A stretch of 63,012 nucleotides of DNA, filler included, from Candidatus Nanoarchaeia archaeon (GCA_035290625.1; 6 parts of 6 records of this genome joined end to end with filler, not necessarily neighbours in it), one strand, 5' to 3'; shown: positions 174 to 62,876, numbered from the whole stretch's first letter. Notes: generated from the sequence alone by a model not told the origin. Numbers and translations: made by a program.

Positions 174-370
174 GGCTTCCCTGAAAATGTAGTTGCCGTC
201 ACTTCGTGAGGCTCTTAAACTACAGGCGTGAGACTGACAAGGGGGATGTCCCTTACGGGGAATGTCAGTCCTCCACTCCTCTTTCACAGCCGAGCCGACG
301 TGCTCCGAAGGAGCGCCCGGAAATGCTTGGCATTTCCGATGGCAACCTCAAAGAGGGTTTCAGGGACGCC
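174..370 (+). mobile_element. Structured hairpin MITE-like element, copy E1
   Basis: Ends GGCTTCCCTGAAA/TTTCAGGGACGCC; inner stem GTTGCCGTC/GATGGCAAC; core GACAAGGGGGATGTCCCTTACGGGGAATGTC; no clear TSD. Confidence 0.8.
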
Positions 371-470
371 GCAAAACAGGCCAGGATTGAGGAACGTCGT
401 ACCAGTAATTATCCATCATAAAGTAATAACAATAGGAAGGTTTAAAAATGAAGAATTGCCACCCTCTCTT

Positions 471-1205
471 ATGCAAGCAGCTATGATGGCCCATGAATTA
501 GTAGTGCCCTCCAATCTCATACACCTAAAAAGGTACATCATACATCTAAAAAAGCACAGAGTTACCTATTGTTATAAAGCAACGCGGTTAGATGTTCAGG
601 AAACGGGTTTTGCGGCTTGCGGCCTTGAAATGATTTCACCGGCGCAGCTTGGTTTTCTTCGGGCAAAACGATTGGAAGCATTTGAACATTATAGCAAGAC
701 GAATGCAGATGTTTTTTATGAGGATAGGGGAAATTCACAAGTTATTATCGTTCCGAGCGGGATACTAAGCAAGCGCATGGGGTTAAGTGATTTGGCCGCA
801 GCCTATAGCCGAGGTCAAGAGTATTTTATCCCTCCTTCTCAAAGAGATTGGGTTTATGCCGTGGTTGATGAAATGCTAAGCAAAGGAACGGCATTCACTG
901 CCAGGCATGGAAAAATAAATATCCCAATTTCTGAATTTGGGCAGATTGAATTAACCTCTAAGTTGTTTTCTGATGAAATCTTAGGAATCGAAGCCCAGGA
1001 GTATGGCGATTTCCTGGATACCCAATGTGAAAAAGTCCAATCACTCTTCTTTGATCCTAAGGATTATGCTAAATCGCAAAAAGGCCCCTATCTGAATAGG
1101 TTGCGTATCTACGGCCCTGGCGGCGGCTTCGATGTCCTTGGCGACGGCGGACTCCTGAAAGACAGTTGCGGCGCTTTCGCGGTGCGTTTTGACAGAGCCG
1201 CCTAA
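471..1205 (+). CDS. Hypothetical protein with DGR variable-repeat-like C-terminus (putative DGR target)
   Basis: TTTAAAAA at 441 suits ATG 471 (the ORF-track extension to 228 runs through E1); GC-rich NNC/NNT-codon tail ending ...GAFAVRF; GC hairpin over the stop. Confidence 0.65.
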   Translation: MQAAMMAHELVVPSNLIHLKRYIIHLKKHRVTYCYKATRLDVQETGFAACGLEMISPAQLGFLRAKRLEAFEHYSKTNADVFYEDRGNSQVIIVPSGILSKRMGLSDLAAAYSRGQEYFIPPSQRDWVYAVVDEMLSKGTAFTARHGKINIPISEFGQIELTSKLFSDEILGIEAQEYGDFLDTQCEKVQSLFFDPKDYAKSQKGPYLNRLRIYGPGGGFDVLGDGGLLKDSCGAFAVRFDRAA

Positions 1206-1307
1206 GGCCGGCAGAAAAAGTAGAAAGCATTCTCACCGTATTTCTTAAGCTTCTTATGCTCTTTGTATCCCTACCCTTTTATAAATCGGTGCATCTCCTT
1301 TTCTGCT

Positions 1308-3884
1308 ATGATCACTCTCAAGAAAGAGCCTGGAACCTCTGCTGAGCTTGAAACAATCCTGCGCCCTCTTATCAAGCAGTGGTTTTTCAAGAAATTCCCC
1401 TCCTTCAGCCTGCCCCAGCTCTATGCTGTAACTGAGATCCACTCGAGAAAGAACATCCTGGTATCAGCTCCTACAGGCGCTACCAAGACCTTGACAGGAT
1501 TCCTGAGCATCCTGAACGAGCTTGTCGATGCCTCTCAGAAAGGGATCCTGGAGGATCGCATCTACTGCGTCTACATCTCTCCTCTGAAAGCGTTGAATAA
1601 CGACATTCACAAGAACCTCATTGAGCCGCTTGTTGATATGGAAGCCTTGAACGGAAAAGCCTTAGGAATACGAGTTGCTGTCAGGACAGGAGACACAACA
1701 GCTTCTGAAAAATCCGCCATGCTGAAAAAGCCCCCTCATATCCTGATCACAACCCCCGAGAGCCTTGCAATCATCCTCTCCTCGATAAAATTTAAGAATT
1801 TCCTGAACGGTGTTGAATGGTGCATCGTTGATGAAGTGCATGCGCTCGCTGAGAACAAGAGGGGCGTTCATTTAAGCCTGAGCCTGGAGCGTCTTGGCAA
1901 GATGAGTTCCCATATGACAAGGATAGGCCTGAGCGCGACCATCTCTCCTCTGGAAGAGGTTGCCAAGTTCCTTGTTGGCTATGAGAACGGAAAAGAACGC
2001 GATTGTTTGATTGTGGATGTGCAGTTCATCAAGGAATTGGACCTCAAGGTGATGTGCCCTGTTCCTGATCTCATCAACGTTGAGGCTGAAGAAAGGCACC
2101 AGAAGATGTACGAGCTCATTGACGAGCTTGTCCAGAGCCATACCTCAACTCTTATCTTCACAAACACGAGAAGCGCAACTGAGAGGGTTGTTGATTATCT
2201 GAAAGAGAAGTTCCCAAAGAATTACACTGAGAACATCGGAGCACACCATGGAAGCCTTTCAAAGGAGCACCGCTTTGCCATAGAGAATAAGCTGCGGCAG
2301 GGAAAACTCAAGGTTGTTGTCTCTTCAACATCCCTTGAGCTGGGGATTGACATAGGCTATATAGACCTCGTTATCCTCCTTGGAAGCCCCAAGTCTGTCG
2401 CACGATGCCTCCAAAGAATCGGAAGGTCTGGCCACAGGCTGCATGAAAAGGCAAAGGGAAGGATCATAGTGATGGACAGGGATGACCTGGTTGAGTGCAG
2501 CGTCCTCCTCAAGGCAGCCATGGAGAAGAAGATTGACAGGATCCATATTCCAACAAACTGCCTTGATGTGCTGAGCCAGCAGATTATAGGGATAGCTGTT
2601 GACTCAAGAACCAGGATTGAGGATCTCTACAGCCTTGTTACTTCTTCCTACTGCTACCACGGCCTTAAGAAAAAGGAGTTTCACGAAGTCCTCGATTATC
2701 TTGCCGGAAAGTACGTTGACCTTGAAGACAGGAATATCTATGCCAAGATCTGGGTTGATGAAGAGGCAGGGGAGATAGGAAAGCGCGGAAAGCTCGGCAG
2801 GGTCATCTATATGACCAATATCGGCACAATCCCTGACGAGACCTTCATCACTGTAAAGATCGGCGAGCAGAGCATCGGCAGGCTTGATGAGGGATTCCTT
2901 GAGAAGCTGAAGAGGGGAGACGTCTTTGTCCTTGGAGGAAACACCTATGAGTTCCTTTTCAGCAGGGGCATGGTGGCTCAGGTAAAGGCAAGCGCAAACA
3001 GGCCTCCCACAGTGCCTTCCTGGTTCAGTGAGATGCTGCCCTTGAGTTTTGACCTGAGCATTGAGATCGGAAAGTTCAGGAGGTATATGGATGATCTGTT
3101 TACAAAGAAGAAGTCAAAGGAAGAGATTCTGACCTTTATCAACACCTATCTCTATGTTGATGCGAACGCTGCTGAGGCATTGTACTGCTATTTTGAGGAG
3201 CAGTTCCGCTACTGCCAGATCCCCTCAGACAAGAAGATCCTGGTTGAATCCTATTCCACAGGCAAGCAGACAATGGTCATCTTCCATACACTCTTTGGAA
3301 GAAGGGTGAATGATGTCTTAAGCAGATGTGTTGCGTTTGCAATCTCGCGGACTGAGCATAAGGATGTCGAGATTGGCATAAATGACAATGGCTTTTATAT
3401 CACTTCTGGCAGGAAGATTAATCCTGTCCGGGCATTCGGGATGCTGAAGAGCAAGGACTTGAGGAAGATCGCCGAGCTTGCCATTGATAAGACAGAGGTG
3501 ATGAAGCGGAGATTCCGCCACTGCGCAACAAGAGCATTGATGATACTCAGGAACTACAAAGGAAGAACGAAGCGTGTTGGCAGGCAGCAGGTCAGCTCCA
3601 TGATCCTGATGACTGCGCTCAGGAGAATCTCTGAGGACTTCTCGATTCTGAAGGAGGCGCGGCGTGAAGTGCTTGAAGATCTGATGGACATCGGGCATGC
3701 AGAGGAAGTGATGAGGCGTATTGAGGAAAAGAAGATTTCGCTGAAAGAGGTCACCACCCAGAGCCCATCCCCCTTCTCTTTTAACCTTGTTGCACAGGGC
3801 TACCTTGATATCCTGAAGATGGAGGACAGGATAGCATTTTTGAAGAGGATGCATGAAGTGGTGATGCAGAAGATACAGAAATAG
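1308..3884 (+). CDS. lhr: Lhr-family ATP-dependent SF2 helicase
   Basis: APTGATKT (Walker A variant), ISPLKALNNDI, RTGDT, TTPESL, DEVH, LSAT, HHGSLS, SLELGIDIG, QRIGRSGH. Confidence 0.95.
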   Translation: MITLKKEPGTSAELETILRPLIKQWFFKKFPSFSLPQLYAVTEIHSRKNILVSAPTGATKTLTGFLSILNELVDASQKGILEDRIYCVYISPLKALNNDIHKNLIEPLVDMEALNGKALGIRVAVRTGDTTASEKSAMLKKPPHILITTPESLAIILSSIKFKNFLNGVEWCIVDEVHALAENKRGVHLSLSLERLGKMSSHMTRIGLSATISPLEEVAKFLVGYENGKERDCLIVDVQFIKELDLKVMCPVPDLINVEAEERHQKMYELIDELVQSHTSTLIFTNTRSATERVVDYLKEKFPKNYTENIGAHHGSLSKEHRFAIENKLRQGKLKVVVSSTSLELGIDIGYIDLVILLGSPKSVARCLQRIGRSGHRLHEKAKGRIIVMDRDDLVECSVLLKAAMEKKIDRIHIPTNCLDVLSQQIIGIAVDSRTRIEDLYSLVTSSYCYHGLKKKEFHEVLDYLAGKYVDLEDRNIYAKIWVDEEAGEIGKRGKLGRVIYMTNIGTIPDETFITVKIGEQSIGRLDEGFLEKLKRGDVFVLGGNTYEFLFSRGMVAQVKASANRPPTVPSWFSEMLPLSFDLSIEIGKFRRYMDDLFTKKKSKEEILTFINTYLYVDANAAEALYCYFEEQFRYCQIPSDKKILVESYSTGKQTMVIFHTLFGRRVNDVLSRCVAFAISRTEHKDVEIGINDNGFYITSGRKINPVRAFGMLKSKDLRKIAELAIDKTEVMKRRFRHCATRALMILRNYKGRTKRVGRQQVSSMILMTALRRISEDFSILKEARREVLEDLMDIGHAEEVMRRIEEKKISLKEVTTQSPSPFSFNLVAQGYLDILKMEDRIAFLKRMHEVVMQKIQK

Positions 3885-3974
3885 TTTCTTACGGCTGCCA
3901 AAACACACATCTTCTATCAGGATACAAAAATGCCTATCGCAACATTAATATAGCCCTTAGTGCTCCATCACATC

Positions 3975-4049
3975 ATGAAGCAGGAAACAGTTACAATAAG
4001 CAAAAAAGAATACGAAGAGCTTTTGGAAGAGGTAGGAATTCTCCGCTAG
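3975..4049 (+). pseudogene. Short ORF resembling the N-terminus of an archaeal antitoxin, truncated
   Basis: MKQETVTISKKEYEELLEEVGILR*, TATA-like TTAATATA upstream, stop overlaps the stop of the convergent radical SAM gene. Confidence 0.4.
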
Positions 4050-5053
4050 TCTTTGACTATGGGCACGTGGGCCAAATTCTGCAAATATTCTTGAAATGAA
4101 GGCATCCTCACCAAACACGGAGCAGTTCCGTGCTTTTTATAGTGCTCTTGTTCTCTGGCGTTTTTGTATTCGAAAGCTTTCTTTAATGGTGTTTCCTTTA
4201 TGTTGCCCAGTAAATCATTGGTAAGTTGAGTATAGGCGCAGGTCATGTAGTGGCCATACGGCCCTATTGCAACGCCATTGGACGAATACCCACACAAACC
4301 GGCGGAATCTAAAGTTAGCGGCCCCCCTGACTCGGACACGCTTCGTATTAATGGAGCATAATCTTCAATCCTGCTCATTGGATTGACAAGGCCTTCCCAA
4401 TTATCCACAGCATTTCCCAGCCGTGCAAGCGGATTGCAGATAAAGTAGATATCTTCTGCGCAAAACTCCTTTATTGCATGCACTTCATCGTTGTTTACAC
4501 TGGAGACTGTTGTGTTAATGGCTGTGCTAAGCACAGTGAGGTCATCTAGCGTTTCAATTCTTCCACGGTAAATCTCTCTAAGAATCTGGATGTTGGCGAG
4601 CACCTGCTGGAGCTGATTCTTCGTTCCTGTTAGATAGTCATATCGCTTATTTTGCAGCGAATCAAGTGAAAGGACAAGCACAGAATTATTCTTGGCGTAG
4701 AATTCTATAACCTCCCTGTGGAGTGCTCGCCCGTTGCTATACACAACAGGGATCATGCTGCTGGAATTAATCTCCGTAACCAGTGTTCGGATATCCTTAT
4801 GAATTGTCGGCTCGCCCTCGCCCGCAATAACAACTACTTTTCCACCTAGCTCCTGAGCTTGGCCAATCAAGTCCAGCCTGTCTTGCAATGTCAGCATCTG
4901 TTCAGGGGGGTATTTTTGTTTGGCAGCCCCCATATTAAAACACTTAGGGCACTTATAGTTGCAGGTAAATTCCAGATTAAGCATTAAATAGGTAAATCCG
5001 TGCAGTTGCCCTGCCTTAGAGAGATGTTTGGGCGTCCCCTTTACTGCCCTCAT
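4046..5053 (-). CDS. Radical SAM protein (MoaA/PqqE-like, possible C-terminal Cys-rich domain)
   Basis: CNYKCPKC motif, GEGEPT, SLDS, C-terminal Cys residues. Confidence 0.9.
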   Translation of the reverse strand: MRAVKGTPKHLSKAGQLHGFTYLMLNLEFTCNYKCPKCFNMGAAKQKYPPEQMLTLQDRLDLIGQAQELGGKVVVIAGEGEPTIHKDIRTLVTEINSSSMIPVVYSNGRALHREVIEFYAKNNSVLVLSLDSLQNKRYDYLTGTKNQLQQVLANIQILREIYRGRIETLDDLTVLSTAINTTVSSVNNDEVHAIKEFCAEDIYFICNPLARLGNAVDNWEGLVNPMSRIEDYAPLIRSVSESGGPLTLDSAGLCGYSSNGVAIGPYGHYMTCAYTQLTNDLLGNIKETPLKKAFEYKNAREQEHYKKHGTAPCLVRMPSFQEYLQNLAHVPIVKD

Positions 5054-6042: not shown

Positions 6043-6137
6043 TGCTTCTTTACTAGTGAATACAAGGAGTATTATGAATATTTGTAGTATCCTATCACTA
6101 CCACAATCTTTATATACCCAACAGCCCTTCTCATGGT

Positions 6138-7252: not shown

Positions 7253-7416
7253 TGCTCCATCCAAAAAACCTCCTTTCAGTCGGGTTGCCATCAGCTCGCC
7301 TGCTTGTTGTAGGGTAAAGGTTGACATCCCCGTAGGGACATCCCCCTGTCAACAGCATTCGTTTACCAGCAGAGGCTCGCAAAATAGATGGCAACCTTCA
7401 TTTTTTGGATGGAGCT
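7253..7416 (-). mobile_element. Structured hairpin MITE-like element, copy E2
   Basis: 15-bp IR GCTCCATCCAAAAAA/TTTTTTGGATGGAGC; GGTTGCCATC/GATGGCAACC; core on + strand TTGACATCCCCGTAGGGACATCCCCCTGTCAA; only a degenerate T-rich TSD. Confidence 0.8.
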
Positions 7417-8671: not shown

Positions 8672-8689
8672 GATCAGTACTCTCAAACT

Positions 8690-8846
8690 GGCTCATTGAA
8701 AAGCTTCGCTCCGATGGTGGCAGGTTCGCCCAGCGATGTTTTACTGCTAAGCGACATATCCCCGAATGGGACGACCCCCTTGTCGTTGTTGTGTCCTTGG
8801 CTTCAGGGGCTCACAAATGGCCGCCATCGCCATCTTCTACCGAGCT
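8690..8846 (-). mobile_element. Structured hairpin MITE-like element, copy E3
   Basis: Degenerate end IR; CGATGGTGGC/GCCGCCATCG; core GCGACATATCCCCGAATGGGACGACCCCCTTGTCG; flanks TCTCAAACT/TCTCAAAGC. Confidence 0.75.
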
Positions 8847-8891
8847 TCTCAAAGCAAGAATTTAAATAGCAGTACTGGCAAATCTTCGTCC

Positions 8892-9992
8892 ATGGACCAC
8901 ACAGAGGAAGCATATCATCAGGCAGTCGAAGTCCTCCGTCTCTGCGCCACAAAACATGGCTTTTATGCATCTCATCCTGGCTATGATGCAGTGTGGGCAA
9001 GGGACAGCATGATCACCTCGATTGGAGCCAGCCTGGTGGATGATGCCAAACTGAAAAATGCCTTTAAGCAATCGCTCCTCTTGCTTGCTAAGCATCAAAG
9101 CCCAGCTGGAGAAATTCCGAACGCTGTTGACATCTTCAGCAGGCGAAAGCCCCATGTGGACTTTTCCTCGATTGACTCAAGCCTCTGGTACATCATTGGC
9201 CACTTTATCTACCAGCAGCGGTATGGTGACAGCTCACTCATAAAAGCTGAGGCTAACTCCATTGAAAGAGCCCTGAACTGGCTTCGCTGCCAGGAAACAG
9301 GGAAAAACCACATGCTCGGCCAGCTTCCTACAACAGACTGGCAGGATGCGTTTCCGCACCGTTATGGCCATACCATAAATTCCATGGCGCTCTATTACAA
9401 AGTGCTCAACCTTGTGCAGCAGAGGAAGAGCGCCGGAATCCTCCAGCAGTCTTCCAACCACGATCCCGATGCAAGGCTGTGGAACGCCAGCTACTACCTT
9501 GCCTGGAGATGGAAGAACCACGGCTCATACAAGGAGAGAGGAGACTGGTTTGATTCCCTGGGCAATATCCTTGCAGTCCTTTTTGGACTTGCGGCTGAGC
9601 CTATGGCAAAGCGCATCCTCCGCCATATCAGGCAGCAGAGAATCAGCAAGCCCTACCCGATAAAATCCATCTATCCTCCAATCAGGAGAGGAACAAAAGA
9701 CTGGCAGGATTATTTTGATGATTGCGATGCCGGAACTCCCTATCATTACCTCAATGCAGGCATCTGGACATACATCGGCGGGCTGTATGTCACAGCTCTT
9801 GTGAAGATGAATCAGATGAATGAGGCCAGGAAGCAGCTTGCCAGTCTGGCTGAGGCAAATACGATCTCAAACTTCAGCGAATGGCTGGATGGAAATACCG
9901 GGAAGCCGTCGCGGGGAAGAAACCAGGCCTGGAATGCAGGGATGTACATCCTTGCCTATCACTCGGTCAAAGCGGGGAGAAGTCTGATATAA
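8892..9992 (+). CDS. Six-hairpin glycoside hydrolase (GH100 invertase / amylo-alpha-1,6-glucosidase-like)
   Basis: YDAVWARDS, SIDSSLW, YLNAGIW, FSEWLDG, QAWNAG; TATA at 8861. Confidence 0.85.
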   Translation: MDHTEEAYHQAVEVLRLCATKHGFYASHPGYDAVWARDSMITSIGASLVDDAKLKNAFKQSLLLLAKHQSPAGEIPNAVDIFSRRKPHVDFSSIDSSLWYIIGHFIYQQRYGDSSLIKAEANSIERALNWLRCQETGKNHMLGQLPTTDWQDAFPHRYGHTINSMALYYKVLNLVQQRKSAGILQQSSNHDPDARLWNASYYLAWRWKNHGSYKERGDWFDSLGNILAVLFGLAAEPMAKRILRHIRQQRISKPYPIKSIYPPIRRGTKDWQDYFDDCDAGTPYHYLNAGIWTYIGGLYVTALVKMNQMNEARKQLASLAEANTISNFSEWLDGNTGKPSRGRNQAWNAGMYILAYHSVKAGRSLI

Positions 9993-11794: not shown

Positions 11795-11997
11795 GGCGCT
11801 GCTGAAATCTGATGCAGTGCCCATGTGTGAGGTCACTATTCCGGAGAATGAGCATCGACAAGGGGGTCGTCCCATCGGAGGATATGTCGATATATTCTTA
11901 AACGAACTGAGACCGAGCTGCTCCGAAGGAGCGACCAAAAATACAAAGCATTTTTGAGTACCGGCACTGCCGCGAAGCGAAGGATTTCAGCAGAGCC
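11795..11997 (+). mobile_element. Structured hairpin MITE-like element, copy E4
   Basis: GGCGCTGCTGAAATC/GATTTCAGCAGAGCC; GCAGTGCC/GGCACTGC; core ATCGACAAGGGGGTCGTCCCATCGGAGGATATGTCGAT; 5-bp DR GCTTG. Confidence 0.82.
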
Positions 11998-12040: not shown

Positions 12041-12694
12041 TCAATCCTTCCCGTCCCATTCGTTGGAGAATCTAGTTAAGAACTGTTCCATGAACTTGTG
12101 TCTCTCTCCCGCAATTCTTTTCGCAGTTTCTGTATTCATCAAATCTCTGAGAAGAAGCAATTTTTCATAGAAATGGTTAATCGTTGGTCCTTTGCTATTC
12201 TTGTATTTTTCAAAAGAATCACGCACTTCAGGTTTAATATGGGGGTTGTAAATTTCTCGTCCCATATGCCCACCATACGCGAAGGTTCTGGCTATCCCAA
12301 TCGCACCAATAGCATCTAATCTATCTGCATCTTGCACAACCATTCCTTCTGTGGTGTGCATTTGTGTTCTAACTCCCGCACCTTTGAAAGACATCCCCTT
12401 TATAATCTCGCAAACATGAGAGATATTCTTTTCTTCAACTTGTAATTTTTGAAGCCATTCCCTTGCTAATCTTGGGCCAACATCATCATTTCCATCATTG
12501 AATTTCCAATCAGAAATGTCATGAAGTAATGCAGCAAGTTGAACTACAAATAAGTCTACTTTCTCATGTTCGCCGATATGAATAGCATTTTTCCAAACAC
12601 GATAAACATGCCACCAGTCATGGCCAGAACCTTCGCCAGATAGCTTATTTTTTATATATTCCTCAGTTTGTTTCAAAATTGCCTCTTTGTCCAT
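12041..12694 (-). CDS. HD-domain phosphohydrolase (YedJ/YpgQ-like)
   Basis: GHDWWHVYRV, ALLHDI, VQDADRLDAIGAIG, HFYEKLL. Confidence 0.92.
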   Translation of the reverse strand: MDKEAILKQTEEYIKNKLSGEGSGHDWWHVYRVWKNAIHIGEHEKVDLFVVQLAALLHDISDWKFNDGNDDVGPRLAREWLQKLQVEEKNISHVCEIIKGMSFKGAGVRTQMHTTEGMVVQDADRLDAIGAIGIARTFAYGGHMGREIYNPHIKPEVRDSFEKYKNSKGPTINHFYEKLLLLRDLMNTETAKRIAGERHKFMEQFLTRFSNEWDGKD

Positions 12695-12740
12695 ACTCAA
12701 GGATTGAACCTTGCAGAATTTAAAAAGATTTCTAAAGGCA

Positions 12741-12905
12741 GGAGGCGTTGAAAAGATATGCAGCGCCTTCCTGTGAGCCATAGTCATCAGGAGAATGCGC
12801 AGCGACAAGGGAGTTGCCCCCTTCGGGGAATGTCGCTTTTCTGACCGAATAGCTCATGGCGAACTTGGCGCTGCCGAGCGGAGCGAGCAACTTTTCAATG
12901 CCACC
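12741..12905 (+). mobile_element. Structured hairpin MITE-like element, copy E5
   Basis: GGAGGCGTTGAAAAG/CTTTTCAATGCCACC; GCAGCGCC/GGCGCTGC; core GCGACAAGGGAGTTGCCCCCTTCGGGGAATGTCGC; TSD TAAAGGCA (12733-12740/12906-12913). Confidence 0.88.
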
Positions 12906-12941
12906 TAAAGGCAGGAGGCGGCATGCGCAAAACAACTTGCC

Positions 12942-13751: not shown

Positions 13752-13817
13752 GCTTAGCTCCGGGTCAGCCAGCTATATAAATTATTCGGAGAGCTCAGAG
13801 GAATTCAGGATTCGTGC

Positions 13818-13983
13818 GTGTGCGGTGAAAATCATTGCTGCCGCCCTTTGTGAGCAACAGGGCAAGAACAATAACATCGACCTCGGGGGGAGGTCCCTTA
13901 CGGGGCGAATGTCGATTTGTAGAAGAATTTTTCAGTCATTGCGAACTCGGCGGCAGCTGCGAAGCAAGATTTTCACCGGAGAT
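13818..13983 (+). mobile_element. Structured hairpin MITE-like element, copy E6
   Basis: CGGTGAAAATC/GATTTTCACCG; GCTGCCGCC/GGCGGCAGC; core ATCGAC..GGGGGAGGTCCCTTACGGGG..GTCGAT; TSD GATTCGTGC (13809-13817/13984-13992). Confidence 0.88.
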
Positions 13984-14030
13984 GATTCGTGCGTAATCTA
14001 TTTAAACGCTCTCATCTTGCTCACGGCAGC

Positions 14031-15316: not shown

Positions 15317-15518
15317 GGCTGCGGTGAAACTCAATGCTGCCGCCTCTTTGCGAGGCTCTTGAGGATTGCCATAGACTGAGTTGAGGGGGTTGGCCCCTTC
15401 GGGGCTTCAACGGTGCCTACAGAAGGACGGCGCAAGCCGAGCCGGGCGGCAGCCGGTGGCTTGTGAGCGAGTGAGAACGAGCTCACTCGCAAGCCACTGC
15501 GATATTTTCACCGCAGCC
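15317..15518 (+). mobile_element. Structured hairpin MITE-like element, copy E7
   Basis: 13-bp IR GGCTGCGGTGAAA/TTTCACCGCAGCC; GCTGCCGCC/GGCGGCAGC; core GTTGAGGGGGTTGGCCCCTTCGGGGCTTCAAC; TSD GGTCATAA (15309-15316/15519-15526). Confidence 0.88.
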
Positions 15519-15599
15519 GGTCATAATCCTTCACACGGTTGGAGCATTTTGGAAAATGGCCGCAGCCTGCCTTGCCTTAGTCCTCCCCGGAATCAAAAC

Positions 15600-15737
15600 T
15601 GTGCTATCCTGAAAGTATTTCCCTTCGATAGCTTAATTCGTTTCATGTTTATTAAGCCTCCTTTTTCATCTTCCTGACAAATGCCTGCTCTGGAGTTTCC
15701 AGAATCTCGAAGCGTAAGCTTCGATGCGGTCTTACCT
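15600..15737 (-). mobile_element. IS481-like insertion sequence, right end with transposase C-terminus (cut by contig end)
   Basis: Starts TGT; minus frame VRPHRSLRFEILETPEQAFVRKMKKEA* (RPHxSL..TP integrase-core tail, stop 15652-15654); identical copy at 57115-57252. Confidence 0.75.
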
Positions 15738-16965: not shown

Positions 16966-16979
16966 GATATCCCTCTTCC

Positions 16980-17261
16980 CCCTACGACTTCAAAGTCGAC
17001 TGGCTCTTAATCAAAGGCCCTCAAGTAAATCCAGAAGGCTCTGATCGATTAAGCCTCTCTGACCTCAACCTAGATGCAGAAGTGGACAGCATTGATGCTC
17101 ATTTGTTCGCAGACAAGTTTGCTAGAGGAGAGGCCAACCAGAGCGACCTTCTTGTATTTATCGAAGAGTTCCAGAGAAGGAATCCTGAAGACCAAGCAAC
17201 ATTGGCAGTTCTCCAAGCATTGAGGACAAGCAGTGTTGAGGATTGGGAAGGGTATAGGTAG
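16980..17261 (+). repeat. Start-less 93-codon gene 3'-end fragment with dockerin/EF-hand-like motif (copy B)
   Basis: PYDFKVDW...DLNLDAEVDSIDAHLF...WEGYR*; direct repeat of 17852-18048. Confidence 0.85.
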
Positions 17262-17834: not shown

Positions 17835-17851
17835 GATTTTGATAATCGACC

Positions 17852-18048
17852 CCCTACGACTTCAAAGTCGACTGGCTCTTAATCAAAGGCCCTCAGGTCA
17901 ATCCAGAAGGCTCAGACTTGCTAAGCCTCTCTGACCTCAACCTAGATGCAGAGGTGGACAGCATTGATGCTCATCTCTTCGCAGACAAGGTTGCAAGAGG
18001 CGAGGCCAACCAGAGCGACCTTCTTGTTTTCATTGAAGAGTTCCAGAG
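17852..18048 (+). repeat. Dockerin-like 3'-end repeat (copy C, cut by gap)
   Basis: Near-identical to 16980-17176; differences mostly synonymous. Confidence 0.85.
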
Positions 18049-37393: not shown

Positions 37394-37510
37394 GGGGCTG
37401 TAGTATAACTTGGCTAGAACAGCTGGCTCCAGTCAATGGAGCAATGAGCACATGGTGCGATGACCTTTGGGATAGACCAGCGGATCTGGGTTCGAATCCC
37501 AGCAGCCCCA
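37394..37510 (+). tRNA. trnW: tRNA-Trp(CCA) with an intron of about 43 nt (about 37433-37475)
   Basis: Acceptor GGGGCTG/CAGCCCC-A; anticodon stem GCTGG/CCAGC with CT-CCA-G; T arm CTGGG-TTCGAAT-CCCAG. Confidence 0.92.
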
Positions 37511-41209: not shown

Positions 41210-41354
41210 TGCTCAGTAGAAAGTCATACGGCATCGAGCTCGCTTGCGCTTCCTTCACTGTTTGCTGACACCCCCGAAGGGGCCTACCCTCTGTCAGCAG
41301 TGTCGTTAAAGCTGAAGAAGCTCGCAAAAATGATGCCGGACTTTCTACTGAGCT
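41210..41354 (-). mobile_element. Structured hairpin MITE-like element, copy E8 (minimal form)
   Basis: 15-bp IR GCTCAGTAGAAAGTC/GACTTTCTACTGAGC; CGGCATC/GATGCCG; core GCTGACACCCCCGAAGGGGCCTACCCTCTGTCAGC; TSD GAGGGCAGC within a 14-bp DR TGAGGGCAGCTGCT; lies between convergent genes. Confidence 0.9.
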
Positions 41355-56490: not shown

Positions 56491-56731
56491 GGTTCAGTAG
56501 CAAGTCAATCGGCAGTGGCTTGCAAGCGAGCAAGGCGAGCTTGCTCGCTAGCCACCGGCTCGCTTGTGCCTGCAGCTGCGATTGCTGACATCCCCGAAGG
56601 TGCTAAAAAGAGCCATGCTCTTTTGGCACACCAAAACGCCCGATGGCGTTTTGATTGAGGCAACCCTCTGTCAGCCCAGCTTATGATTGTGAGGAAGCTC
56701 GCTGAAAGGGTGCCAGACTTGCTACTGAGCC
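56491..56731 (-). mobile_element. Structured hairpin MITE-like element, copy E9 (241 bp, two extra modules)
   Basis: GGTTCAGTAGCAAGTC/GACTTGCTACTGAGCC; TSD TTCTTTTGA/TTCTTTTGG; colinear with E11. Confidence 0.9.
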
Positions 56732-57063: not shown

Positions 57064-57114
57064 AGCCTTCAGGCTTTTGTGGAATTTTTTAAATGTATCG
57101 GTTAGAACAACTAC

Positions 57115-57253
57115 TGTGCTATCCTGAAAGTATTTCCCTTCGATAGCTTAATTCGTTTCATGTTTATTAAGCCTCCTTTTTCATCTTCCTGACAAATGCC
57201 TGCTCTGGAGTTTCCAGAATCTCGAAGCGTAAGCTTCGATGCGGTCTTACCTC
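57115..57253 (-). mobile_element. IS481-like right end, second copy (cut by contig end)
   Basis: Identical to 15600-15737; transposase stop at 57167-57169. Confidence 0.75.
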
Positions 57254-57353
57254 NNNNNNNNNNNNNNNNNNNNNNNNNNNNNNNNNNNNNNNNNNNNTTA
57301 ATTAATTAANNNNNNNNNNNNNNNNNNNNNNNNNNNNNNNNNNNNNNNNNNNN

Positions 57354-57495
57354 ATCCTGCCAAGTCAGCGATTTCCTGTTGTGTTTTCCCTTGGTTTGCC
57401 CACTTAAGGACAAGTTCGCGTGTTTGAAGGTTTAACATGCAAACAAGAAAACACAGATACTATATAAACTATGCGTTATTTTTGTCTTATACTAG
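57354..57495 (-). mobile_element. Probable IS left end with HTH transposase N-terminus (IS630-like)
   Basis: Minus ORF from 57438 MLNLQTRELVLKWANQGKTQQEIADLAG into the gap; candidate terminus ...GTCTTATACTAG. Confidence 0.45.
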
Positions 57496-57548
57496 TTGGG
57501 CGGCAAAAACCATAACACTAATAAATCCCCCTAAAAAACACTCCCGTT

Positions 57549-58619
57549 ATGATTGATGAGCGGGAGAAGAAGCTGGCTCACATCTTTGTGAACCATTCTC
57601 TCACAGTTAAGAAAGGAGATATCATCAAGATAACATGCGGGATCGAGGCGAAGAGCCTTGTTTTGGAGACCTGCAGGCTGATTCTGGAGAAGGGAGCAAT
57701 ACCGAGAGTGGATGTTGATCTCCCGGGATTTGCGTATACATTTTTCAAGCATGCTCCTCCTGAAGTCCTAACCACCTACCCGAAAATCGCTGATTACGAA
57801 GCAAGGAATGTTGACGGGATGATCCGGATCAGCTGCGACCGGAATACCCGGGAGATGAGCTCGATTAATCCAAAGAAGCAGGCTGAACGCAGGCTTGTGA
57901 CAAAGGAGATTTCTGAGATTACCCTCAAGAAAGACAATTGGGTCATCTTTGACTATCCTACAGAAGCCCTTGCCCAGGATGCTGAGATGAGCCTAGAGGA
58001 ATTTGAGGATTTTGTATACGGAGCCTGTCTTGTTGATTATGACGAGATGTCAAGGAAAGAGGATATCCTCAAGGAGGTTCTTGACAAGGGGAATGATGTC
58101 CATATTGTTGGAAAGAACACTGACCTGAGGTTTTCCATCAAGGGAAGGGAAGGAATCAAATGCTGCGGGAACAGGAATATTCCGGATGGCGAGTGCTTTA
58201 TTGCGCCAGTTGAGACTTCCACGGAAGGGCATATCGAATACGATTTCCCTGCCATTTATGGGGGAAGAGAAGTGGATGGCGTCAGGCTGGAGTTCAAGGA
58301 GGGGAAGGTTGTAAAGGCAACAGCAAAGAAGAATGAAGCATACCTCAATGAAATGCTGAACATCGACAAGGGAGCGAGATATCTAGGAGAATTCGGCTGG
58401 GGGATCAATTACGGCATCAAGAAGTTTGTCAAGCAGATCCTGTTTGATGAGAAGATTGGAGGCACGATCCATCTTGCCTTAGGAATGGCGTATAAGCAAG
58501 GAGGAGGGGTCAATGATTCGGCGCTCCACTGGGATATGATCAAGGACCTGAGAAAAGAAGGGGCAGTGTATGTTGATGGGAAGTGCATTATGAAGGAAGG
58601 GAAGTTTACGATATTCTGA
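57549..58619 (+). CDS. Aminopeptidase, M29 (AmpS/PepS) family
   Basis: NIPDGECF, LGEFGWG, LFDEKIGGTIHLALG, SALHWDMI. Confidence 0.95.
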   Translation: MIDEREKKLAHIFVNHSLTVKKGDIIKITCGIEAKSLVLETCRLILEKGAIPRVDVDLPGFAYTFFKHAPPEVLTTYPKIADYEARNVDGMIRISCDRNTREMSSINPKKQAERRLVTKEISEITLKKDNWVIFDYPTEALAQDAEMSLEEFEDFVYGACLVDYDEMSRKEDILKEVLDKGNDVHIVGKNTDLRFSIKGREGIKCCGNRNIPDGECFIAPVETSTEGHIEYDFPAIYGGREVDGVRLEFKEGKVVKATAKKNEAYLNEMLNIDKGARYLGEFGWGINYGIKKFVKQILFDEKIGGTIHLALGMAYKQGGGVNDSALHWDMIKDLRKEGAVYVDGKCIMKEGKFTIF

Positions 58620-58663
58620 ATTCTTGTAAGACACTTTTTCCGCTTTGAGCCCGATTGATGGCC

Positions 58664-60880
58664 TTACGCGTGCCTCATCTTTCCTTCAAGGGCAAGCCTC
58701 GCAAGAAGGTAAGAAATCGTCGACTCTGCCCCTTGGTTGAGATTGATCGAGGATTCTCCGACTCCGTCCTGGCATCCGCCTGTGGACTCATCATACACCA
58801 TCTGCCTGAGCGAGTTCTTTCCGAGGAACCATTGGAATGCGATGCTTGCCTTGTCAAGATAGTCCTTATCCTGGGTGATTGCGTAGGCTGCAACCAAGGT
58901 CTGGACCATGGAAGAGGCGTCAACTGGCTGCTGGTCGAAGTGAGCCCTTTGACCGTTGCGGAAATACCAGCCGTTCTGGCCTACAGGCACAAATGTCCCT
59001 TTTTCAAAGGTAATGGAGATGAGGAAGTCCAATGCCCTTTTTCCAACCCTGAGGTATTCCTGATTCTTTGTCGCGTCATATGCAAACAGCAGGGCTTCAG
59101 GAAGCTTGCTGTTGGAGTAGGTCAAATTGCTTTCAAACCATTCCCAGTCTTCCTGGCTATTTGACTTAAACAAGCTGACAAGCAGGTCTGCATACGATTG
59201 GATAGCATTTCGGATCTGCCGGGCTGGCCTGACGGCATTGCAGAGATACAGCCCAAGGATCATGAAGGCGGCTGGCCGCGGCTCTGTCAGTCCATTCGCA
59301 GGAGCCAATGCTTTGCGAAAGGTCTCTTCCGCCTGCTGCTTCAGGTCTTGGGAGATTTCAGGCCGGGAAATCAGGTATCCAAGCGCCCAGACTGCCCTTC
59401 CATGGGCGTCTCTGCTCCAGTGCTGCATGTTAATCTTTCTGTCATGATCAACGTGATTGTAAAGCTTTCCATCCGGAGCCTGGACGTAGCTGATAAAATT
59501 CAGGTATGTCCTGATTAGCCGAAGCATGACCGGGCTTTGCCTGTCCTTGTATCTCCTGCAGCAGACAATTAAGGCTCTGGAATTGTCATCCAAGGTGTAT
59601 CCCGAGGCCTTGTCCGGAGCAGTGTGGTTAGAGAACTGGATCACGCCAAATCTGTCTGTCATCCTCATGAGATGCGTGAGCTTGAGCTTTGGAAGCTTCT
59701 TCTCATCCCTTGCCCCTATATCCTCCTTGAATACATTCATATAGGATAAAGCTATGTTTGGCCAGAGCATCTTGCGCGTTGCTGCATAAGCATTTCTTTC
59801 CATCTCTTTTCTCAGCTGCTCATGGGTGATCAGCTTGGTAATGGCATCAGTGAACTGCTTCGGCTTTCCGAAATCCACAAGAATGCCGCGATCCGGAGTT
59901 ACTGCCTCCTGCGCATGGAGGAAAGGAGTGGAAACCACTGCCCTGCCGCATCCCATGGCATATGCCAATGTTCCGCTTACAATCTGGTTCGGATTCAAAG
60001 ACGAGGAGATGTAGATGTCTGTTGCCTTGAGGTATTGCACAATCTCCTGAAGCCGGAGGTATTTATTGTAGAACTTAACGTTTTTCTCCAATCCGAAGCT
60101 CTTAACCCTCTCGGTAAGCTCGTTCCGGTAGCTCTCTCCCTGCTCCCTCCTCACCACTGGGTGAGTCTGGCCAATGATGAGGTATACCACATTCGGGTGT
60201 TTTTTAACAACTTCTGGAAGGGCCTGGATCACGTGCTCGTAACCTTTGCCAGGGCCCATCATGCCGAAGGAGGTCAGGACAATCTTATCTCCAAATCCCA
60301 ACCGCTCTTTTTCCTTCCTGCTGGAAACAAAAGGACATGCCGGGATGCCGTGAGGGACAACGGTGATCTTTGAGGAGATGCCATAGTCATTCCGGAGAAT
60401 GTCGACAGCAGTTGCAGTAGGCACGATGATGTGGCTTGCCTTTTCTGCAATTCCCTGAACGACTTTCCTCAGCTTGTCTTCGGGCTGGGGCAGGACGGTG
60501 TGGAAGGTCACTACAATCGGCTTCTGCAGAACTTCAAGGAAGGCGATGATGTAGTCGCCGTAGATGCCGCCGAAGATTCCGAATTCGTGCTGGATGTTGA
60601 CGATCTTTATTGCGCCATTCTCGTTGATCTTTCTGGCAGCGTCGACGTATTCCTGGATATCAGTATCGCTCACCTGGTAGATGGCGTCTTCGGGATAATT
60701 GTAGATATTAACATCTTTGTTCAAAGCAAGAATCTTGGATTTCAGCTTTGGATTGAATTTGCGGTCCATCGCTTGCGTCAAATCTTTGGTGAAGGTCGCA
60801 ATTCCGCATTCGCGGGGCGGAAAGGTGCTGACGTAGAGGATGAACGAGGGCTTTTCTCTGCCTTTCATTGTCCAGCTCAT
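58664..60880 (-). CDS. GT4 glycosyltransferase fused to a six-hairpin glycosidase-like domain
   Basis: FPPRECGIATFT, QHEFGIFGG, SGTLAYAMG, GYTLDDNSRAL, FDQQP, NQGAEST. Confidence 0.92.
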   Translation of the reverse strand: MSWTMKGREKPSFILYVSTFPPRECGIATFTKDLTQAMDRKFNPKLKSKILALNKDVNIYNYPEDAIYQVSDTDIQEYVDAARKINENGAIKIVNIQHEFGIFGGIYGDYIIAFLEVLQKPIVVTFHTVLPQPEDKLRKVVQGIAEKASHIIVPTATAVDILRNDYGISSKITVVPHGIPACPFVSSRKEKERLGFGDKIVLTSFGMMGPGKGYEHVIQALPEVVKKHPNVVYLIIGQTHPVVRREQGESYRNELTERVKSFGLEKNVKFYNKYLRLQEIVQYLKATDIYISSSLNPNQIVSGTLAYAMGCGRAVVSTPFLHAQEAVTPDRGILVDFGKPKQFTDAITKLITHEQLRKEMERNAYAATRKMLWPNIALSYMNVFKEDIGARDEKKLPKLKLTHLMRMTDRFGVIQFSNHTAPDKASGYTLDDNSRALIVCCRRYKDRQSPVMLRLIRTYLNFISYVQAPDGKLYNHVDHDRKINMQHWSRDAHGRAVWALGYLISRPEISQDLKQQAEETFRKALAPANGLTEPRPAAFMILGLYLCNAVRPARQIRNAIQSYADLLVSLFKSNSQEDWEWFESNLTYSNSKLPEALLFAYDATKNQEYLRVGKRALDFLISITFEKGTFVPVGQNGWYFRNGQRAHFDQQPVDASSMVQTLVAAYAITQDKDYLDKASIAFQWFLGKNSLRQMVYDESTGGCQDGVGESSINLNQGAESTISYLLARLALEGKMRHA

Positions 60881-60923
60881 TGAGGAAGTTCTTTATAAAA
60901 CCTCTGTTTTGGAACTCTGTTTT

Positions 60924-61086
60924 GGCTCGGGTGAAAATGAAGGCCGCATCATCCGTGAGCCTTCTTTACAAAAAGATACCACAACGACAAGGGGGATGTC
61001 CCTGACGGGGATATGTCGCTCCTTGCTCACATACGCACAAGGCGAACTCGATGCTGCCCGAACGAAGCGAGATTTTCACCAGAGCC
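60924..61086 (+). mobile_element. Structured hairpin MITE-like element, copy E10
   Basis: GGCTCGGGTGAAAAT/ATTTTCACCAGAGCC; GCATC/GATGC; core CGACAAGGGGGATGTCCCTGACGGGGATATGTCG; DR TTTTGGCT overlapping the left end. Confidence 0.85.
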
Positions 61087-61108
61087 TTTTGGCTGTGCAT
61101 CAGACTTT

Positions 61109-62140
61109 TCAGCTCAGGCTGTCTTTCTCATGGATCAGCTCGTGGACCAGCTCGTCAATGTCGCAGGAGACTGCTGCGATGCGCTTGTCTGCTGCGCCAT
61201 AGTAGATGTACAGCCTGCCGTCAAACCTTGCAGTCCCTGTCGGGAACACCACGTTCGGGACATTCCCTTTTTTTTCCCACTCCTTCTCCGGAGAAAATAA
61301 GGGATGCTTGAGATGGCCTATGACCTTTGTTGGGTCTTTCTTGTCAAGCAGGGCTGCCCCCGCCCTGTAGATCCTGCCTTTGTCCATGTCGTCCACACCG
61401 TGGTAAATCAGGAGCCATCCCTTTTCTGTCTCGATAGGCGGGCAGCCTCCTCCGATGTTCCTGACCTCATACCAATACTCTGATTCGAGGACAACATACC
61501 TGCTCAGATTCCTGAGGTAGGCCTTCCAGTAGCTTGGGGTGAGGTCGCTGAATTTCCTAAAATAAATGACCTGGATATCAGGGAGTATTCTGTGAAGAAG
61601 CGCATACCTGCCATTGATCTTTCGCGGGAAGAGGATGCCGTCTTTTTCCCAGAGAAGGACATTCTTCCCGACAATATCCTTGAAATAAGATTCGAAGAGG
61701 AAGTAGCGCTCCTTAAGGCCGTTGCACTGCCTGAAAAGATCCTCTGCCTTATCGTAGGTGAGCTCAGGGGAGAGCACTCCCATCTTTTGCCACGTCATAA
61801 GGTCCTTGCTTGCAGCGCATGCAATCCGGCAATTCTTCTTATCATAGGCAGCATAGGTCATATAATATGTTCCATCGATGTGGACTATCCGGGGGTCTTC
61901 AATGCTATACTCGGACCTTCCTGAAGATGTTAGAACCGGCTTTTTCATCCGCTCAATAACCCTGAGGGGGCCATCGAGCCTGCAGTATCCTATCGTCGAG
62001 CGGTTTTGGGTGTTCCAAGCCCTGTAGAACATATGCAGGTGGTTCCCTTTCTGGGCAACCGCAGGGTTAAAGACTCCCTTGTTCTCAAAGGGGAGGCTTG
62101 TCGGGCTGAGAATAATTCCATGGCGCCGAATATGAACCAT
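61109..62140 (-). CDS. GH130/PH1107-like glycosidase or phosphorylase
   Basis: GVFNPA, EDPRI, KDGILFP..ALLHRI, LIYHGV, NVVFPTG, YYGAAD. Confidence 0.92.
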   Translation of the reverse strand: MVHIRRHGIILSPTSLPFENKGVFNPAVAQKGNHLHMFYRAWNTQNRSTIGYCRLDGPLRVIERMKKPVLTSSGRSEYSIEDPRIVHIDGTYYMTYAAYDKKNCRIACAASKDLMTWQKMGVLSPELTYDKAEDLFRQCNGLKERYFLFESYFKDIVGKNVLLWEKDGILFPRKINGRYALLHRILPDIQVIYFRKFSDLTPSYWKAYLRNLSRYVVLESEYWYEVRNIGGGCPPIETEKGWLLIYHGVDDMDKGRIYRAGAALLDKKDPTKVIGHLKHPLFSPEKEWEKKGNVPNVVFPTGTARFDGRLYIYYGAADKRIAAVSCDIDELVHELIHEKDSLS

Positions 62141-62336
62141 GGCCTGTTTTTGGGTTGTTTGTTTATAAAGGTTTGGATGAAGGCAGCCAAGACCCGATTG
62201 CCGGAGTTCATGGATTGGAACCCTGATTGAAGCTGGCCGAAGGCAGCATTCCTCTCGAAGTATCGTCAAGAGAATACAAAAATATATAAATGACATCTGC
62301 TCAGACACCATTAGTACCTAAAAGGGGGGTAAAACA

Positions 62337-62579
62337 ATGGCAAAAGTTATTGCAAAGACAGGAGTCAAGAGAGTAAAGGGATACCTTTATTTCTTGGATA
62401 AGAAGGGAGATGTCGCTCGGGTCCAGATGGCGCGGGCAGGCAAGAAGACCTCAAAGAAGCAGGAGGTTGTTGCCAAGGCAGGCATCAAGAGGAAGCCGGG
62501 CTGCCTCTACTTTATTGACAAGCGCGGGGATGTCTGCGAAGCCCAGATGGCCCGAGGCGGAAGAAAGAAGAAGAGGTAA
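62337..62579 (+). CDS. Small basic protein with an internal tandem duplication
   Basis: VIAKTGVKRVKGYLYFLDKKGDV..QMAR and VVAKAGIKRKPGCLYFIDKRGDV..QMAR. Confidence 0.85.
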   Translation: MAKVIAKTGVKRVKGYLYFLDKKGDVARVQMARAGKKTSKKQEVVAKAGIKRKPGCLYFIDKRGDVCEAQMARGGRKKKR

Positions 62580-62580
62580 G

Positions 62581-62620
62581 TTTTTCTATTTTTTTTTTCT
62601 TATTTTTTTGCTAAATTTTT
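62581..62620 (+). terminator. Oligo-T archaeal terminator
   Basis: Several long T runs directly after the stop codon. Confidence 0.6.
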
Positions 62621-62635
62621 GCCACACTTGGATTC

Positions 62636-62876
62636 GGCTCAGTAGAAAGTCATACGGCAGTGGCTTGCAAGCGAGCAAGGTGAGCTTGCTCGCTAGCCGC
62701 CGGCTCGCTTGTGAGGGTATATGTGATTGCTGACACCCCCGAAGGTGCTAAAAAGAGCTACGCTCTTTTGGCACACCAAAACGCCAGAGGGCGTTTTGAT
62801 TGGGGCAACCCTCCGTCAGCAGTGCTGATGAAACTGAAGAAGCTCGCAGAAATGATGCCGGACTTTGTACTGAGCC
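62636..62876 (-). mobile_element. Structured hairpin MITE-like element, copy E11 (241 bp)
   Basis: GGCTCAGTAGAAAGTC/GACTTTGTACTGAGCC; perfect 9-bp TSD CTTGGATTC (62627-62635/62877-62885). Confidence 0.92.

Follow-up and report, generated by a model that had tools for sequence, protein, structure and literature searches.

What are the eleven hairpin-like repeats found in a 63,012-nt stretch of the Candidatus Nanoarchaeia archaeon genome (GCA_035290625.1), what moves them, and what is their fold for? This stretch, hereafter the window, is made of six contigs with runs of N between them. The initial annotation had read the repeats as a mobile, MITE-like family with a selected fold, and duplications, ends and covariation support that reading: the repeats are MITEs (non-autonomous DNA transposons) from a single order of archaea. 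A profile built from the 11 copies matched exactly those 11 places within the window, and the positions and orientations first given were all borne out in the sequence (Table 1). The terminal repeats match at 11–13 of 14 positions in 10 of the 11 copies; the two ends of the 8689–8846 copy agree at 6/14 positions only. The flanking duplications claimed earlier were exact in five copies (8 bp for 12741 and 15317, 9 bp for 13818, 41210 and 62636) and carried one mismatch in two (8689 and 56491), but none was convincing in the other four (174, 7253, 11795 and 60924); the 5-bp repeat cited for the 11795 copy is not an 8–9 bp duplication.

Table 1. MITE copies and associated features, in coordinates of the window
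Feature	Position	Strand	Description
MITE copy	174..370	+	End type B; extra double-hairpin module in 3' arm; neither duplication nor promoter motif recognisable
MITE copy	7253..7416	-	End type E; duplication decayed (6/9); TATA motif 18 nt beyond low-coordinate end
Mosaic or decayed copy	8689..8846	-	Unlike ends; 8-bp duplication with 1 mismatch; TATA motif 15–16 nt beyond high-coordinate end
MITE copy	11795..11997	+	End type J; double-hairpin module; without 8–9 bp duplication
TATA box and 6-bp BRE-like segment	12719..12732	-	Abuts outer edge of the 12741 duplication; directed away from the MITE
MITE copy	12741..12905	+	End type C/K; basic 165-bp layout; exact 8-bp duplication 12733–12740 / 12906–12913
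Apex of the 12741 copy	12802..12836	+	Stem P4, purine run R1, pyrimidine run, triloop, purine run R2; predicted stacked purine-purine-pyrimidine triples (from sequence and covariation in relatives)
MITE copy	13818..13983	+	End type D; exact 9-bp duplication 13809–13817 / 13984–13992
6-bp BRE-like segment and TATA box	13993..14006	+	Immediately past the 13818 duplication
MITE copy	15317..15518	+	End type D; 40-nt hairpin module; exact 8-bp duplication; TATA motif 16–17 nt beyond low-coordinate end
MITE copy	41210..41354	-	End type A; shortest layout (145 bp); exact 9-bp duplication
MITE copy	56491..56731	-	End type A; apical and 3' hairpin modules; 9-bp duplication with 1 mismatch; TATA motif 16–17 nt beyond low-coordinate end
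MITE copy	60924..61086	+	End type D; no recognisable duplication; TATA motif shifted to 24–27 nt
MITE copy	62636..62876	-	End type A; apical and 3' hairpin modules; exact 9-bp duplication; TATA motif 17–18 nt beyond high-coordinate end

The host genome (G000) carries about 165–177 copies (177 places at E<=1e-3 in the profile search), or about 120 per Mb, and relatives are present in 46 of 149 other genomes of the same order. Two unpublished genomes (G131 and G315) enter the analysis only through the tallies 46/149 and 33/401. A blast search with one copy gave no match in 40 relatives; the sequence alone is too diverged. The core pattern had no match in viral contigs, and no Rfam family matched the window at gathering score (best E in 12 outside copies, 0.15). 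After 11 copies at contig ends and 30 with weak end calls were dropped, 135 full copies remained, which are non-coding, 136–262 bp long and bounded by 14- to 15-bp terminal inverted repeats. Highly similar copies (up to 98.8% identity) sit at separate loci.

Target-site duplications peak at two lengths only, with an exact 9-bp duplication in 20/135 copies and an exact 8-bp one in 17/135; other lengths were found in 0–2 of the 135 copies (shuffled control, 0.005–0.015). Duplication length tracks end type: type C has an exact 8-bp duplication in 13/16 copies and a 9-bp one in none of the 16, type A has an exact 9-bp duplication in 9/37, and both lengths are seen with type D. An exact duplication is kept in only 37/135 copies. 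The two ends are of the same type in 123/135 copies and unlike in 12, some of which have a perfect duplication all the same (C27:4464, C72:4537). Modules have been shuffled between copies by recombination and interiors exchanged between end types; the unlike ends are consistent with such recombination. The idea that type H is a core captured inside IS6-like ends was not confirmed. As for empty sites, 57 probes yielded one true case, a filled and an empty version on 95–98% identical segments of contigs C81 and C44; two of the three matches were artefacts of stacked copies. Among the joints listed, none skipped a copy in contigs of four DNA runs.

Full-length insertion sequences that share the MITE termini were found for several end types, including one in the host genome, where an IS with type-I termini has its two ends at contig ends and one protein (P0003) matches both. 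In all, 25 full-length IS5-type relatives with clear ends were collected, leaving aside five wrong automatic end calls, 13 partial loci and one unmatched locus; an exact 9-bp duplication flanks 22/25, and at least 8/9 positions agree in 25/25. Their end variants match MITE types I, A-like, F-like and L105, plus a D-type left end only. End types B, C/K, E, G and J had no counterpart on any IS examined, which leaves 5 of the 11 window copies without a matched partner. A second IS5-type transposase clade, 26% identical to the first, gives 8-bp duplications (complete element at C49). The partner elements are 0.9–1 kb long and encode transposases of about 266 and 284 aa. PF01609 (DDE_Tnp_1) is present on 117 of the 120 homologues listed, and NF033579 is the best model for both clades, although its scores (122–127 and 98.9 bits) fall below the curated cut-off of 140. 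Of the DDE families proposed by the initial annotation, the IS903 group stands, in that the mover is IS5-type and IS903-like, but IS1, IS1595 and IS256 do not; searches for IS1595 and IS256 in G000 gave none. The PF13737 domain (IS903 N-terminal) was likewise not found in G000. The classical IS903-type elements of the order (8/301 genomes) have different ends and are not direct partners, and in G000 the IS6-like, IS1634-like, six Y1 and one RT matches differ in their ends and lack the core. A generic scan of G000 for repeats plus duplications turned up no long element bounded by MITE-type ends, since the partner IS is unassembled; a back-translated pattern gave three matches in the genome_contigs set, all unrelated. 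The core is absent from the partner IS sequences, so that the MITE interior is not an IS deletion derivative. The 219-bp MITE of the second-clade IS lacks the core fold, and three near-complete genomes carry such IS yet no core-bearing copy; the fold is therefore not required for transposition.

The copies are inserted at a fixed place relative to promoters. A TATA motif lies 15–19 nt beyond an end in 70/124 copies (3.3 expected at random), whereas adjacent 5-nt windows hold 1–17; outside G000, the same docking was observed for 44/68 copies in 28 other genomes. The promoter-side edge of the duplication is 6 bp upstream of the TATA box, so the BRE-TATA-gene unit is left intact. The docked promoter is directed away from the MITE, which may lie in either orientation (42 versus 35, unbiased). 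An A is found at +4 in 40/40 flanks, the start codon is exactly 36 nt past the duplication in 14/30, and 13/22 insertions of the 8-bp class sit at +8 (background, 8% of intergenic positions). With the strict motif, about 40% of copies have no TATA motif at the fixed place. Autonomous IS have one there in 22/25 cases, and in genome G219, 10 of 11 young identical IS copies are promoter-docked. IS481-like elements obey the rule (7/7 paired insertions), IS6-like elements at 5/9 ends, and IS200 ends in 0/4. That unrelated DDE elements of the host (IS5-, IS6- and IS481-type) share the docking rule points to a host-set site: promoter-bound TBP-TFB, by the edge of its footprint or its DNA bend, would set the position and so provide a safe harbour. 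The fixed promoter position, like the base-triple signal described below, had escaped the initial annotation.

In the window, 10 of the 11 copies fold better than shuffled sequences (top-strand RNA z, -3.2 to -11.1), the 8690–8846 copy reaching only -1.3. The interior keeps four stems, tandem G·A pairs, conserved unpaired bases and two unpaired spacers of fixed length, across the order and across two transposase clades. What had been described as a variable imperfect helix is no helix, as the 18- to 22-nt spacers pair equally well with spacers of other copies (-3.67 versus -3.67 kcal/mol, 68 copies). Double-sided changes occur at 33/36 pairs in an unfitted alignment, and, across 68 outside copies with a mean identity of 53%, at 35/36; stem P2 is 99% paired with several pair types across 28 genomes at this identity. 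At the apex, three-way covariation was seen at two positions (G/G/C 54 versus A/A/T 11, the latter in eight genomes, and G/G/C 61 versus A/A/T 5, in five genomes), together with one purine-purine position; joint changes require 11 and 7 tree steps, versus 9–11 and 6 for single columns. From this pattern we predict that the apex forms a stack of purine-purine-pyrimidine base triples. It would suit a purine-type triple helix, which is built of G·G-C and A·A-T/U triples and whose third strand is antiparallel to the purine strand. A K-turn was ruled out, as two Watson-Crick pairs lie between the bulge and the G·A pairs.

Some features bear on the strand and the nucleic acid that fold. The 3' GNA-triloop hairpin has a Watson-Crick outer pair in 92/105 matches, and GNA triloops are found on the top strand far more often than on the bottom strand (144 versus 19); in the apical loop it is the bottom strand, and not the top one, that reads as a GNA triloop. 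Two-pair GNA-triloop hairpins are much more stable as DNA, according to the part of PMC13037366 available, whereas tandem G·A pairs and purine triples can also form in RNA (PMC13541005, in the sections accessible). As far as sequence goes, GNA triloops and tandem G·A pairs favour folded ssDNA over RNA. Of the 20 runs listed, none was an RNA run with the elements, which carries no information on expression.

Taken together, the MITEs are probably moved in trans by IS5-type (IS903-like) DDE transposases, into a promoter site set by the host, with a fold that may be selected in ssDNA. Ordinary transposases made elsewhere would act on the MITE ends. The element's single strand would adopt its fold at a replication fork or in a transposition intermediate, and the fold would be selected for raising the element's own copying, perhaps by keeping the ends of so short an element together or by protecting the strand; this is the weakest step, about as likely as not. 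A more far-reaching version, possible but doubtful in our judgement, is an order-wide "master" module whose folded ssDNA, with a purine-motif triple helix, is itself the DDE substrate, its ends paired on one strand rather than synapsed on a bent duplex; it would swap termini to ride whichever IS5-type transposase is available, and a host rule that holds for every DDE element of these archaea would deliver it to the TBP-TFB promoter edge. We also think it unlikely that the same MITEs, with the same movers, act through RNA, a read-through transcript forming a rod whose purine triple helix makes the RNA more stable, insulates the neighbouring promoter or binds a host protein, core copies being tolerated. 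RNA can form stems, tandem G·A pairs and purine-type triples alike, unpaired bases are conserved, G·T slightly exceeds A·C on the top strand (a weak bias, in P1 and P3 only) and the top-strand letters of the apical loop resemble UNCG; yet A/T swaps set the apical register as a triloop and not UNCG, the triloop hairpins favour DNA, the docked promoter points away from an element of unbiased orientation, and Rfam gave no match.

Other readings concern the insertion itself or the origin of the fold. Compact genomes purge disruptive insertions, so broad insertion with survival only just outside promoters would also yield a spacing common to unrelated families; we nevertheless regard selection alone as very unlikely, given the near single-base sharpness at +8, the sparse adjacent windows, the docking of young IS copies in G219 and the undocked IS200 ends. 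That the fold is a neutral by-product of a hairpin origin and of recombination between copies is highly improbable: copies do recombine, and both a core-less MITE and core-free IS hosts exist, but P2 keeps its pairing through several pair types, the unpaired spacers keep their length and the three-way swaps recur. To mobilization through structure or reverse transcriptase, which the initial annotation had raised from the covarying termini, we give hardly any credence. One RT gene is present in G000, and perfect duplications occur with unlike ends; however, no copy lies beside RT or HUH transposase genes, same-type ends prevail, unlike ends fit module shuffling, and the end variants are found again on autonomous IS5-type elements that duplicate the same length of target and follow the same rule of placement. 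The radiation of IS5-type elements with matching ends largely explains the varied MITE termini, so that RT- or structure-based integration is not needed. Equally, no core was found near the Y1 genes tested and the duplications are DDE-type, which sets aside REP/REPIN or IS200/605-type HUH elements; fixed 8- or 9-bp duplications tied to end type, and the lack of a core at the RT locus, do so for a retron or SINE-like element.

IS903 has a single DDE transposase, short GG-starting terminal repeats and a 9-bp duplication, and its non-autonomous derivatives share its ends. The partners found here resemble the IS903 group/IS5 (NF033579, PF01609) in their single DDE transposase, GG-starting ends and 9- or 8-bp duplication, but differ in their smaller, below-cut-off proteins without PF13737 in G000. 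In type I MITEs the interior is typically a deletion derivative of the partner IS, unlike the conserved interior of the present family. MITE interiors are usually held to be inert filler; this one carries what appears to be a tertiary-level fold across an order and two transposase clades, which makes it one of few natural candidates for an intramolecular purine triplex with a function in DNA, and it lets one test directly how transposition of very short elements works.

In yeast, TFIIIB (TBP and Brf1) targets Ty3 insertion to a safe harbour. The likeness is a position set by a basal TBP/TFIIB-type complex, the protein link here being conjectural; Ty3, however, is a retrotransposon whose integrase acts at Pol III start sites, whereas these are DNA transposons upstream of the promoter. 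To judge by the common BRE-TATA spacing of IS5-, IS6- and IS481-type elements, archaea may likewise have their insertion sites set by basal transcription factors, as TFIIIB sets those of Ty3. TnGBS/ISLre2 (p-MULT 3) and ISKra4 also show DDE insertion at a fixed distance upstream of promoters, in both orientations if their ends are near-identical, but at bacterial sigma-A promoters, 15–17 bases upstream of -35, and with particular transposase lineages (PMC3942029, in the portion available); here the promoters are archaeal BRE-TATA, and one host has three or more unrelated families that follow the rule. PMC13343696 nowhere mentions promoter or TATA. Docked insertions would mark active promoters in uncultured archaea and hint at tools for non-disruptive insertion.

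Our literature search, to which most subscription papers were external, found neither this MITE family nor its fold described, and no account of insertion at promoter edges in archaea. The ENE triple helices known from transposons of plants and fungi likewise lie inside mobile elements, but are U-rich RNA loops that bind poly(A) (PMC13541005, same sections), whereas purine-type triples are predicted here in a 35-nt apex of a non-coding DNA element. DNA mini-hairpins at phage and plasmid priming sites are GNA-triloop hairpins that act in replication as ssDNA (PMC13037366, same part). A catalogue of prokaryotic MITEs records 105 per Mb in a Woesearchaea genome, close to the density in G000, with no structure, partner or promoter analysis in the text available (PMC11602168); the present elements may be among its sequences. 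In a pattern scan of metagenomes, matches came mostly from the same population.

The window is composed of six contigs (C2–C7) of a 1.37 Mb genome in 84 contigs, with N runs between them. A profile search of it recovered exactly the 11 copies of the folded, MITE-like repeat listed in the initial annotation, all of which were confirmed as described; in the whole genome the search matched 177 places (about 120 per Mb, 2% of the DNA). No Rfam family matched the copies. In folding, 10 of the 11 beat shuffled sequences. The reported flanking duplications were exact, of 8 or 9 bp, in five copies, carried one mismatch in two and were not convincing in four.

We assessed 165 copies of the genome, of which 135 had two recognisable ends. 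About eleven end types were distinguished, and both ends were of the same type in 123 of the 135. Exact duplications were of 9 bp (20 copies) or 8 bp (17 copies), any other length being found 0–2 times, and shuffled flanks gave 0.005–0.015. Duplication length tracks the end type: type C ends had exact 8-bp duplications in 13 of 16 copies and 9-bp ones in none, type A ends had 9 bp in 9 of 37 copies and 8 bp in one, and with type D ends both lengths were present (4 and 2 of 22). The 57 probes for empty sites yielded a single true one, in stretches of contigs C44 and C81 that are 95–98% identical: C81 carries the 9-bp target once, and in C44 the target flanks a copy. No additional empty allele was present among the displayed joints in contigs of four DNA runs. 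The copies are mobile DDE-type elements. At one site (C1:28710-28911; loci L044 and L058), a single insertion has a length of 170 bp or 202 bp depending on the assembly, an internal hairpin having been lost or gained in place.

An orphan end with a type-I repeat at the terminus of C66 opens into a reading frame, and another at C28 closes one; a single database protein matches both frames exactly. This protein, about 266 aa long, is a transposase of IS5 type (NF033579 fits it best, with a score below cut-off), and relatives were found in 33 of the 401 genomes searched, this one counted. Its named homologues are from Woesearchaeota/Nanoarchaeota and the gene content is archaeal, so that a DPANN host of this group is likely. 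Model searches of the genome for other movers (IS1595, IS256, PF13737) gave no match. The 25 full-length IS5-type elements with clear ends measure 885–911 bp, except one of 1019 bp, and their duplications are exact in 22 and at least 8/9 matching in all 25. A second transposase clade, 26% identical to the first, has a complete element of 967 bp at C49 and makes 8-bp duplications. Full-length IS sharing MITE termini, for which the initial annotation proposed to look, exist: the ends of the IS5-type elements show the same kind of variation as those of the MITEs, their variants match types I, A-like, F-like and that of MITE L105, and type D is matched at the left end only, by an element of genome G250. 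Type B, C/K, E, G or J ends were not found among the IS examined. Mobilisation based on structure or on reverse transcription had been proposed because the termini covary; as end variants are shared by IS5-type elements and MITEs, this alternative is unneeded for integration, and covariation of the termini is mostly explained by transposases that have radiated, each with its own end sequences. Good support exists for identifying the family as an IS5-moved MITE. The 5' untranslated regions of partner IS (L164–L208) contain two conserved-looking hairpins, and the second spans the ribosome-binding region ahead of the start of the transposase gene.

Many insertions lie at promoter edges. Of 124 copies, 70 have a TATA motif that begins 15–19 nt beyond one of their ends, against 3.3 at random (at most 8) and 1–17 in adjacent windows; the motif is also present outside an end in 44 of 68 copies from other genomes. 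With the outer edge of the duplication as origin, it begins between +6 and +10 in 18 of 22 cases with 8-bp and 18 of 32 with 9-bp duplications (intergenic background 8%). All 40 of 40 flanks have A at position +4, which was unselected, a BRE-like feature, and in 14 of 30 a start codon is placed precisely 36 nt outward of the duplication edge. The same rule was followed by 22 of the 25 autonomous IS5-type elements, by four of four IS903-type copies in genome G157 (judged by eye), by all seven paired insertions of an IS481-like element with 14–15 bp duplications and at five of nine ends of an IS6-like element; none of four IS200 ends followed it. Since the promoter-side cut is constant whatever the duplication length or the family, we infer that the insertion site is set by the host promoter complex (TBP-TFB) rather than by one transposase. 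Ty3 and TFIIIB offer a precedent for targeting. In bacteria, TnGBS/ISLre2 and ISKra4 are inserted 15–17 bases upstream of sigma-A promoters (PMC3942029). MITEs in general are already known, and a high MITE density is noted for a Woesearchaea genome in an extract of PMC11602168; a description of this family, of its fold or of archaeal promoter-edge insertion was not found in the literature searched, and the consulted extract of a 2026 survey of archaeal IS (PMC13343696) makes no mention of promoters. The IS481-like element is also nested within MITE copies (C52/C32, C53/C24).

The conserved interior, or core, was not present in the examined sequences of either IS clade. A covariance model built from 43 copies of this genome gave matches in 46 of the order's 149 other genomes (45 when one unpublished genome is left out), and the 28 other matching genomes of a phylum-wide sample were all of the same order. 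In an alignment made without fitting to the model, pairing holds in 87% of cells, and both partners vary in 33 of the 36 pairs; for 68 copies from 28 other genomes (mean identity 53%), in an alignment itself fitted to the model, 95% pair, compared with 33–41% in slid controls, and both partners vary in 35 of the 36 pairs. The fold comprises, in order, the end stem, P2, a T-rich bulge, P3 with tandem G·A, spacers, P4 and the apex; the two spacers of 18–22 nt do not pair with each other. Three self-contained hairpin modules, each inserted at one of three fixed junctions, are combined with the end types in many ways, which indicates recombination between copies and also accounts for copies with unlike ends.

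At the apex, the purine run, the pyrimidine run and the second purine run covary in the 68 copies: position 1 is G/G/C in 54 versus A/A/T in 11 (8 genomes), position 2 is G/G/C in 61 versus A/A/T in 5 (5 genomes), and the flanking purines are A/A in 47 versus G/G in 6. A tree computed with the apex left out, itself weak and drawn from recombining copies, requires 11 and 7 steps for the joint triple states, about as many as for single columns (9–11 and 6), so that the apex changes appear coupled and repeated. This register suggests a predicted structure of purine-type triples, in which the third strand runs antiparallel to that of the purines, as such triples are defined in an extract of PMC13541005.

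Whether the interior acts as RNA or as single-stranded DNA was weighed on several features. The loop of the 3' mini-hairpin is a GNA triloop, and its outer pair is Watson-Crick in 92 of 105 matches (233 sequences). Across the 3' parts of 204 copies, 144 hairpins of this kind lie on the top strand versus 19 on the bottom; according to an extract of PMC13037366, GNA-triloop hairpins are far stabler as DNA and are found at phage and plasmid priming sites. Two features speak against single-stranded DNA: the apical loop reads as a GNA triloop when the bottom strand is taken, and the bias of G·T over A·C is weak (55 versus 29 in the end stem, 17 versus 6 in P3, none in P2, P4 and P5). MITE orientation relative to the adjoining promoter, which is directed away from the MITE, is unbiased (42 versus 35). 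The fold is dispensable for transposition: two copies are present of a core-less 219-bp MITE that belongs to the second IS, and genomes G219, G157 and G286 have partner-type IS and no core-bearing copy. The latter also means that the element is not needed as a guide acting in trans. From the DNA-like hairpins, the unbiased orientation and the non-essential fold, we tentatively read the fold as a selfish aid to copying, most likely at the level of single-stranded DNA, with action as RNA as the main rival.

Three longest-ORF calls begin within MITE copies; these are probably false starts, and the MITEs may have added N-termini to the ORFs. Their positions are collected below with those of other features.

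Locations of features in the window and in its genome (C, contig)
Feature	Location	Observation
Longest-ORF calls	window 228-1205, 8766-9992, 12041-12808	begin within MITE copies
Type-H copies	C24:6610-6823, C80, C68, C59, C18, C71	within outer inverted repeat like IS6-like ends; no 8–9 bp duplications at inner ends
Stacked elements	C25:1-294, C67:1-295, C33:72974-73300, C30:15139-15498	at one promoter site; kinds in the genome: IS beside MITE, MITE beside MITE, IS within MITE
Separate 219-bp MITE	C15:2072-2290, C30:15139-15357	ends of the C49 IS, no structured core
IS481-like right ends	window 15598-15737, 57114-57253	contig ends; element unassembled, 14–15 bp duplications
TA-starting element	window 57354-57495 (start of C7); ends of C83, C14, C35	unassembled; resembles IS630 by eye; 2 of 4 ends have a TATA motif about 15 nt outward
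IS6-like remnant	C67:39801-39832	32 bp, two ends alone, beside TATA motif
Reverse-transcriptase gene	C68:37802-38929	the only one; near contig end, DGR-like by eye, unlinked to MITE
tRNA with insert	window 37394-37510	Rfam match, none with ARAGORN
200-bp direct repeat	window 16978-17176, 17850-18048	92%, in C3; further copy at C20
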